Of a DNA stretch of 47,819 bases, positions 40,148-42,839 are shown in pieces. Origin of the DNA: a virus (taxonomy: Duplodnaviria > Heunggongvirae > Uroviricota > Caudoviricetes); the IMG/VR virus record IMGVR_UViG_2534681833_000010; one strand, given 5' to 3'. How positions within the stretch are numbered: the first letter of the stretch is position 1; the number at the start of each line of letters is the position of its first letter. The notes under the pieces are model-generated. The model ran no database searches and was not told the origin of the DNA. It saw nothing but the letters and a program-made list of their open reading frames with translations. Made by a program: the position numbers and the translations under genes.

Positions 40148-42162
40148 GAGAGCTGTGCTATGGATCTGTTTGCAGTGGAATTGAAGCCGCGAGCATTGCA
40201 TGGGAACCGTTGGGTATGCGTCCGGCGTGGTTTGCTGAAATCGAGCCTTTTCCATCTGCCGTTCTTGCGCACCGCTGGCCCCATGTCGCGAACCTTGGCG
40301 ACATGACAAAACTCGCCCAAAAAGTCCAGGCCGGAGAAATTGAAGCCCCTGATGTGCTCGTCGGGGGTACGCCTTGTCAGGCATTTAGTATCGCGGGATT
40401 AGGTGGTGGGCTTGATGATGAACGCGGCGCGCTAACTTTGACGTATGTGGAGCTTGCAAATGCAATTGACGACAAACGGGCTGAGTCATTTCTCAAACCA
40501 GCAGTTATCGTCTGGGAAAATGTCCCAGGAGTCTTGTCATCGGCAGATAACGCCTTCGGATGTTTCCTTGCCGGATTGGCTGGAGAAGATGCGCCATTCG
40601 AACCAGGTGATCGACCTGAATCAGGAAAAAGTAACGCGTTCTGGCGGTGGGATGTCAAAACCGGTTGCCATGCTCCAAAGTGGCCGCAGTGTGGTTGTAT
40701 TTATGGACCGCAGCGAAAGGTGGCCTGGAGAATCCTTGATGCCCAATACTTCGGAGTGGCACAACGACGCCGACGCGTGTTTGTTGTCGCAAGTGCTCGA
40801 ACAGACCTCGATCCCGCAACGGTACTTTTTGAGTTCGAAGGCGTGCGCCGGAATATTGCGCCGAGCAGAGGCGAGGGGAAGGAAACTACCAGATATACTT
40901 CAAACATCGCTATCAGAACTTGCGATGATACAAACATAATTGCCATGGCACATGGGCAAGGAGGGGCTGAGATAAAAACCGATAATTCGGCACCAACTTT
41001 GACATGTAACCATGAAGCACCAATTGTATTGCTCGGCGACGGTAGAATGCGCCGTCTTACCCCTGTCGAATGTGAAAGGCTGCAAGGTTTTCCTGATGGG
41101 CATACGTTGATCCCGACGGAAAAGCGTAAAAAAGTTAATTCAGATGAACTGGCATATCTTCGCAATCACTATCCAGATTTAAGCGAAGAAGAGGCCGCGA
41201 TGCTTGCAGCTGACGGACCGCGTTACAAAGCGATCGGCAATAGTATGGCAATACCAGTAATGCGCTGGATTGGCGATCGGATTACTAAGGCCGTATGTCG
41301 GCAGAAAGAAGGAAGTGAAACAAAAGAGCGAAAAGTTAAACCAGCGGCAGAATTCGAACGGTCCATATTCAAATGGGCTGGTGGAAAATTTGGTGTTCTG
41401 GAACAAATCTTTCGCTATTTGCCAGAAGGGAAGCGCCTGATTGAACCTTTCGTTGGTGGCGGAGCTGTCTTCATGAATGCCGGATACCAGGAAAATCTGC
41501 TAAATGATGTGAATGCTGACCTGATTAACTTTTACAAGACTCTGCAACGCGAGGCGAATTCACTTATCACTCTGGCACATCGTTTCTTCCAGGACTACAA
41601 CACACAGGAAGGATACCTGGCAGTACGGAATGCGTTTAACAAACAAGTCTATGATGATTTACATCGCGCAGCGGCGTTTTTGTTCCTGAACCGACATTGT
41701 TTTAACGGATTGACGCGTTACAACCAGGCCGGTGAGTTCAATGTCGGTTATGGGAAGTATAAAACTCCGTATTTCCCATTACAGGAGATGGAAGCCTTCC
41801 TCGGTGCGGAAGGGCGGTCTGAGTTTGTATGCGGTGATTTTGCAGCGGTGATTGAAGCTGCCGGAGAAGGAGATGTCATCTTTTGCGATCCGCCGTATGA
41901 ACCGCTTCCAAATACAGAGGGATTCACGAACTATTCCGGTCATGACTTTAAGTTTGAAGAGCAAAAACGCCTGGTGTCTCTGTTGACGGATGCTCATCGT
42001 CGAGGTGCAAATGTTCTCATTACTAACAGTGGCGCGCCAAACATCAGAGAGCTTTATCATGACAGTGGCTTCAGAGTGGAACCTCTTTTTGCCAGACGTT
42101 CTGTGTCTTGTAAGGGAGACACTCGTGGTGTTGCTCATGACGTTATAGCAATATTGCTCTAA
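40144..42162 (+). CDS. dmt: bifunctional DNA methyltransferase Dmt (N-terminal C5-cytosine MTase, C-terminal Dam-like N6-adenine MTase)
   Basis: C5-MTase motifs ([16 protein letters not shown]) in the N-terminal half; Dam-like motifs (KWAGGKF, DPPY) in the C-terminal half; stop overlaps a C1 operator. Confidence 0.7.
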
Positions 42163-42169
42163 TAAATTT
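42153..42169 (+). promoter_or_regulatory. C1 repressor operator overlapping the dmt stop codon
   Basis: ATTGCTCTAATAAATTT, 17/17 to consensus. Confidence 0.7.
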
Positions 42170-42346
42170 ATTAGTGTAATATCGACTCAATGAATCGTGA
42201 TTTATAGAGCGATTTAGCTGTTAGCCGCGACAGGCGCGGCGGCAAGTATGGCGGGGTAGTGACTCCTTCCCCATCATGACGCCGAGTTGCCAGGTTGACC
42301 ATACGCCTAAGTGGCAACACCGAAGTGCGTTACGAGCTTCCAGTTT

Positions 42347-42373
42347 GCCCATCTTCGGGTGGGCGTTTTTTTT
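42347..42373 (+). terminator. rho-independent terminator
   Basis: GCCCATCTTCGGGTGGGCG followed by TTTTTTTT. Confidence 0.5.
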
Positions 42374-42558
42374 CAGGGTTTTCGTCATGGTTAGCGACTT
42401 TGCGGCGGTTTAGAAACTGACCATTAAAGTAAATGCAAACGATGATCTGATGATGGTAGCGGCCTAAGAAGCCAGACGCCACGGGGTATGAGTCGTCCCC
42501 CGTCAAAAAATCGACCGCAGAGTGTCCCCGTCTGTGTATTAGGGAACGGGGAGGCACT

Positions 42559-42632
42559 ACAGGTAAGGGCGCTGGTTCGATTAACCAGATGAGCGAGAAG
42601 GGGCCATCTTTTTGGTCAGCGTCCTTACCTGT
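42559..42632 (+). repeat. structured tRNA-like repeat element, copy 1
   Basis: 10-bp perfect outer stem ACAGGTAAGG/CCTTACCTGT enclosing T-arm-like CTGGTTCGATTAACCAG. Confidence 0.5.
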
Positions 42633-42839
42633 TACGTCCTTTTTCATTCGGCGTAACAGCAATTGCTTTTAGCAATTTAGGAATAACGTCTTGCTACGGG
42701 TATATCCCGTCATGCTGAAGGCGCTAATCACGCTGGAAGCCAGGGTTATGCATCCCCTGTTACCGAATTGCAGCCAGGGCGCGGTGCGCCGAAAAGCATA
42801 CGGAGGTGGAAGCCCTCGCCGGAGACGTACCCGGCAAGT

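Follow-up and report, generated by a model that had tools for sequence, protein, structure and literature searches.

What occupies the 680 nt that separate the dmt gene from tRNA-Asn in IMG/VR virus record IMGVR_UViG_2534681833_000010? This stretch of 47,819 nt, hereafter the window, is by sequence identity and gene order a P1-like (Punavirus) plasmid-prophage; the positions given below are those of the window and refer to its plus strand unless stated otherwise. Segment 42100-43450 aligns with positions 68614-69924 of phage P1 (NC_005856) at 94-95% nucleotide identity, P1 and the window share the gene order dmt / operator / tRNA-Asn / tRNA-Thr / … / tRNA-Ile(CAU) / ban, and 42160-42840 is 100% identical to E. 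coli plasmid NZ_CP122822.1. A sequence-only reading had proposed that a C1 operator at the dmt stop codon controls a small RNA (sRNA), or an attenuator that gates read-through into the tRNA cluster and ban. Our distant-homology searches showed that the spacer is modular. We propose, with a probability of roughly 0.7, that the region consists of a C1-repressed control region and, after it, an extended untranslated leader of the ban operon in which several RNA genes lie one after another, among them a tag RNA related to transfer-messenger RNA (tmRNA).

The tag RNA corresponds to module B of the spacer, a tag element of approximately 180 nt (42375-42552) with a tag reading frame, a hairpin and two H-type pseudoknots. 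In a permissive Rfam scan, the tmRNA_permuted model gave a sub-threshold match (26.1 bits, E 0.005) whose core is the tag, and ARAGORN at an 80% threshold reported the tag ANDDLMMVAA together with a "resume consensus". The tmRNA-type tag frame, GCA AAC GAT GAT CTG ATG ATG GTA GCG GCC TAA (ANDDLMMVAA*), spans 42435-42467; it has neither an AUG/GTG start nor a Shine-Dalgarno sequence, and an in-frame TAG lies eight codons upstream. The 5' domain of the element (42375-42434) contains, in this order, GTTTTCG, GCGACTTTGCGG, TTTAGAAACTGACCA and the resume context TAAAT. GTTTTCG (42378-42384) is invariant among the collected elements, an invariance to be read with the fact that the collection required TTTTCG upstream, and the GAAAC..ACCA block is absent in some relatives. 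In a five-way alignment of elements from unrelated phages, the frame stays in register (ANDDLMMVAA, ANDDVVLMAA, ANDNEFKVAA, ANDNAYLMVA and ANDDLMLMAA).

Because the first collection scan had itself constrained the tag frame, we repeated it with two patterns taken from the second pseudoknot only. Among the 127 unique upstream sequences recovered in these tag-independent scans, 123 showed the resume motif and a stop codon after exactly 10 codons; three carried variants of the motif and still kept 10 codons followed by TAA (AKDDQFLAVA, ANDNEMRAAA), and the remaining one was an unrelated chance match. Exactly 10 codons and a stop are thus kept by all genuine unique elements (126/126). Across the elements, the tag occurs in 38 distinct nucleotide versions that encode 24 peptides, with synonymous variation: the final Ala is encoded by each of the four possible codons, and Leu7 by CTG or TTG. 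The peptides begin with A-N-D/E and end in LMAA, LAVA, MVAA, LAAA and others. We interpret this conserved, start-less frame as the signature of a tmRNA tag and not as what a conventional gene or a relic would show.

Could the region instead encode small proteins, either the annotated hypothetical ones or the peptide KLTIKVNANDDLMMVAA translated conventionally from a non-AUG start? Some GenBank records do place hypothetical coding sequences (CDSs) over the stretch, and the window itself has a 110-aa minus-strand open reading frame (ORF) at 42330-42662. However, the curated P1 record has no CDS here, and the conserved frame lacks the start signals of a conventional gene, opening instead at UAAAU|GCA, the resume site of bona fide phage tmRNAs. 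Moreover, indels between the window, P1 and P7 (T8 vs T6, A6 vs A7, and others) disrupt all long frames on both strands, so no ORF in the 466 nt from 42374 to 42839 is conserved among the P1-likes; over the whole spacer, 42163-42839, neither a tRNA nor an ORF shared by the P1-likes is present. The protein-coding explanation was rejected on this lack of conservation, and we consider it extremely improbable. The sequence-only reading had described a further 470 nt of noncoding DNA before tRNA-Asn, which holds as far as conserved ORFs are concerned; the stretch is not empty, since it contains conserved RNA modules.

The secondary structure of the tag element was defined on a clean alignment of 20 T1-like-type sequences, which yielded five helices. 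The first is a P5-like hairpin, GGC-CTAAGAA-GCC (42461-42473), with the stop codon in its loop; in relatives it covaries, with C-G/T-A and G-C/A-T exchanges. The first pseudoknot, PKa, is formed by stem S1, ACGGGG/CCCCGT (42481-42486 with 42498-42503), and stem S2 of the AGTCG/CGACT type (42491-42495 with 42511-42515). Stem S2 covaries between subgroups (GTCG/CGAC, CCGA/TCGG, CCAG/CTGG and CCAA/TTGG), and in the window's subgroup stem S1 keeps 5/5 pairs in all nine members, in four sequence versions (ACGGG/CCCGT, AGTCA/TGATT, CTGGG/CCCAG and AGCGA/TCGTT). The second pseudoknot, PKb, comprises stem S1, CGCAGA/TCTGTG (42516-42521 with 42531-42536), which pairs in both the family and the subgroup, and stem S2, TCCCCG/CGGGGA (42525-42530 with 42547-42552), taken from the family structure. 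All six pairs of PKb stem S1 are kept in every correctly anchored subgroup sequence, and its seven different stem sequences include CGCAGA/TCTGTG, CGGAGT/ACTCTG, CATGGA/TCCGTG and CGCACT/GGTGTG. In the family alignment, 95.4% of the cells are paired, compared with 24-41% when the partners are slid, 10 pairs are changed on both sides, and values as high as these were not obtained in any of 500 shuffles. A covariance model from which all P1-like sequences had been left out matches the window at 42419-42565 with 53.9 bits (E 9e-11) and phage HK620 with 164 bits.

Two further pairings proposed for the 5' domain were rejected. A long-range partner of GCGACTTTGCGG was sought; its best complements cluster after the tag and show no covariation. 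A mini tRNA-like domain built from a GGUUUU/GAAACU stem and ACCA failed as well, as pairs 1:72 and 2:71 do not covary and ACCA is missing in several relatives.

Homologs of the tag element are present in 292 cultured phage genomes, where they are almost never annotated and typically lie beside tRNA genes, in long non-coding gaps. The carriers belong to at least four unrelated families and include, besides the P1-like Punavirus, Schitoviridae (N4-like Gamaleyaviruses are among the carriers), T1-like Drexlerviridae, Cronobacter CS01, Vi1-like Ackermannviridae of Serratia, Erwinia, Klebsiella and Salmonella, and Lederbergvirus (HK620). In HK620 (locus L448, 810-1250), a foot hairpin, a tag element encoding ANEEMYLAVA*, a second foot hairpin and a GTGGTG module follow one another. 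This array lies in the Q-dependent late-operon leader, after pR'/qut and before the annotated tQ terminator and the holin gene; in other lambdoid phages, tRNAs or stx genes occupy this position. Given the location of the arrays in an early leader in P1 and in a late one in HK620, the modules occupy strongly transcribed leaders. A scan of bacterial-genome contigs with the pattern GTTTTCGN{1,22}GCGAYTWTGCGG returned 120 loci, all of them chance matches, and therefore says nothing on the distribution of the element in bacterial genomes.

Near two of the relatives' elements we observed odd tRNA-like genes, approximately 160-190 nt before the tag element and neither with G3.U70: a 72-nt "tRNA-Ala(cgc)" in PD205 (locus L003, -230 to -159 before the tag), annotated as a pseudo-tRNA, whose acceptor stem measures 8 bp and whose D stem measures 3 bp, and a 92-nt "tRNA-Cys(aca)" in phiMAM1 (locus L005, -278 to -187 before the tag).

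The breadth of this distribution bears on whether the tag element might be a functionless, decaying relic of the coding piece of a captured two-piece tmRNA whose acceptor piece was lost. Such an origin would agree with its clear relation to canonical phage tmRNAs, with the partial deletion of the 5' domain in some variants and with the tRNA-like domain not having been found. In a relic, however, frameshifts and stops are expected, yet every one of the 126 unique sequences keeps its 10 codons and TAA; the 24 peptides have conservative C-termini, both pseudoknots still pair through compensatory changes, and the element persists in Punavirus, Ackermannviridae, Schitoviridae, Drexlerviridae and Lederbergvirus. 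We therefore judge decay to be a very improbable explanation.

For comparison, ARAGORN at its default threshold identified two-piece (permuted) tmRNAs in 44 viral contigs with the (A/G)UAAAU|GCA context; these have a T-arm, a G3.U70 acceptor stem, CCACCA and a coding piece that starts with GGGxxxG…GGUUUCGAC. A profile hidden Markov model of the acceptor piece recovered all 44 and 10 further canonical-type loci that it alone recognised (54). Among the tags of the many phage two-piece tmRNAs in viral contigs L007-L126 (e.g., L014, L007 and L081) are ANDEQFALAA, ANDSVYALAA and ANDERFLMAA.

That the window or P1 encodes a canonical or permuted tmRNA was rejected: ARAGORN at default settings, Rfam at gathering thresholds and the acceptor-piece profile were all negative, and the "tRNA domains" that ARAGORN offers at the 80% threshold were judged not credible. 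The gathering-threshold Rfam scan of P1 reports three tRNAs and C4 only. A relationship with host ssrA was likewise set aside, since similarity to the E. coli gene is limited to GCAAACGAYGA, with nothing past the first codons, and complementarity is not above that of shuffled sequence.

Judged by its sequence relatives, we read module B as a tmRNA-derived messenger/pseudoknot module with no recognisable tRNA-like domain. On evolutionary and structural identity, we regard it as very likely that the tag RNA is a functional tmRNA-derived RNA. As far as the accessible literature shows, it is an undescribed variant of tmRNA. Published tmRNA surveys list phage forms and forms consisting of the tRNA-like domain (TLD) only, with no enterobacterial phage and no TLD-less form among them (PMC4131195, PMC11915505). 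In the literature searched, whose coverage is incomplete for P1, no tmRNA-like element is reported in P1 or in enterobacterial phages, and the P1vir transcriptome papers contain no discussion of noncoding RNAs in this region.

How would such an RNA be expressed? The dmt ORF (40144-42162) ends with a TAA (42160-42162) that falls within a C1 operator, Op72a or Obana (ATTGCTCTAATAAATTT, 42153-42169), a 17/17 match to the consensus exactly as the sequence-only reading had described it. A second operator, Op72b or Obanb (42164-42180, minus strand), is an inverted 15/17 match that shares 6 bp with Op72a; the pair makes up the bivalent operator Op72ab, and the homologous positions are annotated in the P1 and P7 records. 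Five C1 sites with at most three mismatches were found in the whole window, compared with 0.24 expected by chance. At the homologous place, the P1 reference record annotates the divalent operator Obanab (formerly Op72ab), a sigma-70 promoter P1ban, a predicted promoter P2ban and a "dicF-like region"; the operators of the P7 record are as in P1. When the P1 coordinates are transferred to the window by alignment, P1ban covers 42154-42182 (-35 TTGCTC at 42154-42159, a 17-nt spacer, -10 TAATAT at 42177-42182), with an expected transcription start at approximately 42189, and the predicted P2ban has its -35 at 42137-42142 and its -10 at 42163-42168. A generic consensus scan of the region does not list P1ban, because its hexamers are weak and the -35 scores only 3/6; both promoters come from the P1 annotation. 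Based on this correspondence, we identify the control region as the already known Op72ab/Pban of the P1 ban operon. In phage P1, ban is known to be repressed from Op72ab by C1, aided by Lxc, as the notes of the P1 record also have it.

The first transcribed segment is module A, a promoter-proximal structured leader (approximately 42189-42373) assigned by homology and by its position relative to DicF. Its core (42225-42325) is 82-83% identical to the segment upstream of DicF in phage mEp460 and in K-12 Qin, where the homologous segment sits between ydfC and dicB and ends approximately 25 nt before DicF. Segments homologous to this core were found in 4411 of 5426 complete E. coli genomes, as well as in lambdoid phages. 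The alignment of module A shows three conserved hairpins and one compensatory change (TTGCCA/TGGCAA vs TTGTCA/TGACAA). The 188-nt RNA folds with -66 kcal/mol (z -1.9 vs shuffles). The stretch had been called GC-rich, which is true only mildly, with 54% GC compared with 47-50% around it.

The "dicF-like" stretch of the P1 record corresponds to 42280-42380 in the window, and we considered whether it contains DicF itself. The DicF covariance model (Rfam RF00039) gave no match at E<=10 against 42100-43500, and as a positive control it scored 76.7 bits in mEp460. At the position of DicF, P1 and the window instead carry an unrelated segment of approximately 50 nt (approximately 42326-42373) that closes with a terminator; this sRNA-like 3' end is restricted to the P1-likes. 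A DicF identity was therefore rejected for the window, with the Rfam model unmatched and homology confined to the upstream leader. What the record calls "dicF-like" is thus a homolog of the leader that precedes DicF, joined to a different, sRNA-like 3' end. The pre-dicF segment itself (K-12 locus L324, 701-797; mEp460 locus L323, 1501-1597) carries no annotation and has no match among the Rfam families; a role in the processing or regulation of dicBF transcripts is possible.

Module A ends in a hairpin that resembles an intrinsic terminator, GCCCATC-TTCG-GGTGGGC followed by T8 (42346-42373), with a 7-bp stem and a UUCG loop (stem-loop 42346-42365) and a T tract at 42366-42373 that is T6 in P1 and P7. 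It lies approximately 185 nt from the expected transcription start and bears out the strong rho-independent terminator that had been placed at 42347-42373. Since terminator-like sites in the region are no more numerous than in shuffled sequences (2 vs 2.2), the call rests on the quality and conservation of the site. The hairpin is also the stable hairpin directly 5' of the tag element. In D6-type P1-likes, which are without module A, homology begins only at 42344, so the terminator hairpin travels with the tag element module. With a strong terminator closing the first ~185 nt, the tRNAs and ban need read-through. By analogy with dicF/dicB, module A likely behaves as a short terminated or processed RNA with partial read-through.

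The small RNA or attenuator of the sequence-only reading is therefore a fair account of the first ~190 nt as far as the sequence goes, and it is silent on the tag RNA, the processing-type hairpin and the conserved leader. In its strict form, it would make a C1-controlled short RNA or attenuator, from operator to terminator, the sole function of the locus and the remaining 470 nt a spacer. The geometry of operator, promoter and terminator fits such a proposal, and module A is conserved and structured. Against it, the supposed spacer contains an element conserved in sequence, structure and frame over at least four unrelated phage families, and we consider this restricted function quite improbable.

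Downstream of the tag element, further modules follow. Arrays in other phages usually have the tag element between two foot hairpins, with more modules and tRNAs after the second, all on one strand; in many phages, such hairpins flank other modules as well. The feet are stems of 13-16 bp with the consensus CAACAGGTAAGAGCATTG/CAGTGCTCTTTCCGTTG, variable inserts and local pairing. In the window, the terminator hairpin stands in for the upstream foot, and the downstream foot, hairpin 1 (42559-42632), has a 13-bp stem, ACAGGTAAGGGCG/CGTCCTTACCTGT, around a variable 48-nt insert, in agreement with the recurrent architecture. We presume that the foot hairpin is an RNA-processing stem. A pairing of the two feet across the tag element, as an acceptor/P2 stem, was rejected because the feet covary locally (GGGCG/CGTCC in hairpin 1 vs GGGTA/TACCC in hairpin 2) and because the upstream and downstream feet of PD205 are not complementary. 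The motif CAACAG(A/G) recurs at the piece boundaries of two-piece tmRNAs and at the feet of P1-type arrays.

Region C (42633-42839), a conserved leader to tRNA-Asn with predicted structure, is found in P1-likes only; one of its hairpins shows a compensatory difference between the window and P1 (AATTGCT/AGCAATT vs GGTGCT/AGCACT), and the rest varies too little to show covariation. It is followed by tRNA-Asn(GUU) (42840-42915) and tRNA-Thr(UGU) (42918-42993), both co-oriented with Pban. Just after tRNA-Thr, foot hairpin 2 (42995-43081) encloses a tRNA-like element without an anticodon arm (core 43010-43067). This element has a 7-bp acceptor-like stem, TATTTTG/CGAAGTA (43010-43016 with 43061-43067), a D-like arm whose loop contains GG, a mini stem of 3 bp and a T-arm without mismatches, AGGG-TTCGAAT-CCCT (43045-43059); its leader and trailer pair as the foot, no CCA is encoded and ARAGORN makes no call. 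The acceptor stem covaries over 15 unique homologs (CATTGGG/CCCAGTG, CATTGCG/CGCAGTG) with an invariant U3.G70. In some T1-like contigs, the element stands directly before or after the tag element, and P7 has another insert within foot hairpin 2. Farther downstream, the GTGGTG module, GTGGTGAATGCACAGGCTGATGTGCC … GTCGGAGTTCAGCACCGACCATCAC (43312-43408), is closed by the stem GTGGTG/CA(T/C)CAC, has two hairpins inside it, and recurs after foot hairpins in T1-like arrays and in HK620.

Other observations were made in this part of the window. The P1 minus-strand genes plp and upl (window approximately 42964-43430) overlap tRNA-Thr and cover these conserved RNA-like modules of the plus strand; the window has no intact plp frame, and only minus-strand ORFs of 81 aa (TTG start) and 49 aa remain. 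Both annotations are probably mis-annotations. Positions 43207-43327 form another large leader hairpin, a long near-perfect inverted repeat with arms CAACGTTGAGAACACTG/CAGTGTTCTCAACGTTG and a loop of approximately 55 nt, which produces spurious matches to microRNA families on both strands. Elsewhere in the window, sok (hok/sok-type, 24643-24817), RNA-OUT of IS10 (46519-46588) and the C4 antisense RNA with its a1/b1 targets (20983-21188) reach Rfam gathering scores, and the tRNA with anticodon CAU (45199-45274) is called Met by ARAGORN and tRNA-Ile2 (trnI) in the P1 annotation.

Together, these elements suggest how the leader might work. When C1, helped by Lxc, leaves Op72ab, Pban would fire at approximately 42189. 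The first ~185 nt would form a structured RNA that is terminated, giving an abundant short RNA while a fraction of the polymerases continues. Read-through transcripts would carry the ~180-nt tag RNA (42375-42552), and processing of RNase III/E/P type at the long hairpins and tRNAs could free the individual RNAs. Stalled ribosomes would then read the tag RNA, which would put a degron-like tag specified by the phage on their products. A separate RNA would provide the aminoacylated tRNA-like half, either an array module (e.g., 43010-43067) or a component of the host. That a start-less frame is under selection in a resume context implies trans-translation and hence a tRNA-like partner in trans. 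That the tag RNA is the messenger half of a split trans-translation system is a tentative proposal to which we give somewhat less than even odds. More broadly, and as a rather unlikely generalisation, many enterobacterial phages may possess a modular, non-covalent form of trans-translation for which P1-type tag RNAs supply the messenger halves. Ribosomes that stall in infection or induction would be rescued, and a tag chosen by the phage (…LMAA, …LAVA or …MVAA) would take the place of the host ALAA degron, under direct C1 control in P1. The partner in trans may be a separate tRNA-like RNA, such as the elements without an anticodon arm, or the host tmRNA-SmpB; in P1, the system would be co-expressed with the phage tRNAs and the Ban helicase.

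Several results weigh against this account. Trans-translation as it is understood requires a tRNA-like domain on the same ribonucleoprotein. ARAGORN at default settings finds no such domain (acceptor stem, T-arm, CCA) in the window, a motif scan for a T-arm followed by 7 nt and NCC was negative, and the acceptor-piece profile detects none in P1-type loci or the window and gives no significant match to the whole P1 genome. The tmRNA_permuted match (RF04321) stays at 26.1 bits, compared with a gathering score of 47, and the 5' domain, the 60 nt upstream of the tag, has no covarying helix and no equivalent of pseudoknot PK1. No module near the tag elements co-occurs with them universally as a partner: a T-arm hairpin lies near approximately one third of them (~33%) and the GTGGTG module within 1.5 kb of 91/157 (58%), and at these frequencies neither the tRNA-like element of hairpin 2 nor the GTGGTG module was retained as an obligatory partner. 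A strong terminator lies directly upstream of the tag element, so that its expression from Pban needs read-through, and the fold of module A barely beats shuffled sequence, as its z-score indicates.

The main alternative to a messenger half is that the tag RNA is a decoy for S1, RNase R or SmpB-bound ribosomes that damps host trans-translation, with the tag itself untranslated. An RNA with no tRNA-like domain found cannot be charged, the tag RNA sits in strongly transcribed leaders, and a converse precedent exists in the inhibitory, TLD-only tmRNA of mycobacteriophage DS6A (PMC4131195, PMC11915505). A decoy, however, needs no intact frame, no fixed number of 10 codons, no synonymous-type variation and no degron-like C-termini, and neither special complementarity nor extended similarity to E. 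coli ssrA is seen. We consider a decoy role unlikely.

P1 is among the best-studied phages, and the 2.6-kb ban leader has been regarded as a promoter with tRNAs and small ORFs of doubtful status. A functional tag RNA would represent a new tmRNA architecture, a tag module without a tRNA-like domain; it would indicate that ribosome rescue or protein tagging is manipulated by phages of several families, and it would account for the association of the modules with phage tRNA genes in strongly transcribed leaders. It would also offer a tractable test bed in P1 c1ts lysogens, HK620 and T1-like phages. In approximately 290 deposited phage genomes, the element is unannotated or lies under spurious "hypothetical protein" calls, and the neighbouring modules under P1 plp/upl are likewise unannotated or covered by such calls. 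The homology to the DicF leader flags a structured, unannotated RNA segment in approximately 80% of E. coli genomes.

The comparison with known systems places each part of the leader. The control region shares with Op72ab/Pban of phage P1 the identical 17-bp operator, the overlapping inverted partner and the position on the dmt stop codon, with no essential difference; the window has small indels, such as T8 for T6 after the terminator. As in the dicBF operon of lambdoid Qin-type prophages, a short RNA segment follows the leader and ends at an intrinsic terminator that must be read through for the downstream genes to be expressed. The terminator that follows the leader homolog corresponds to that of DicF by position only, however, the 3' segment differs in the window and no dicB lies downstream. 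With the coding piece of phage two-piece tmRNAs, the tag element shares the resume context (A/G)UAAAU|GCA AAC GA, the type (ANDxxxxxAA) and length of the tag, a stop codon in or beside a hairpin and a location in non-coding or tRNA regions of phages. In the canonical forms, an acceptor piece with T-arm, G3.U70 stem and CCACCA lies 85-340 nt upstream, and the coding piece includes the GGGxxxG acceptor strand and PK1. All of these are missing from the P1-type elements, in which the tag is followed by two pseudoknots and the element is directly preceded by a stable hairpin. Like E. coli SsrA (RF00023), the element encodes 10 residues that start with AND and end in small hydrophobic residues and Ala, and both place the stop codon in a helix-5-like hairpin and pseudoknots after the tag. 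Unlike SsrA, it lacks both a tRNA-like domain and PK1, two pseudoknots follow its tag where SsrA has three, and the tag ends in MVAA, LMAA or LAVA instead of ALAA. Naturally occurring half-tmRNAs have been described, namely the TLD-only phage tmRNA of DS6A, which inhibits tmRNA, and the tag-less mitochondrial and plastid forms (PMC4131195, PMC11915505); these keep the tRNA-like half without a tag, and the P1-type element is their converse.

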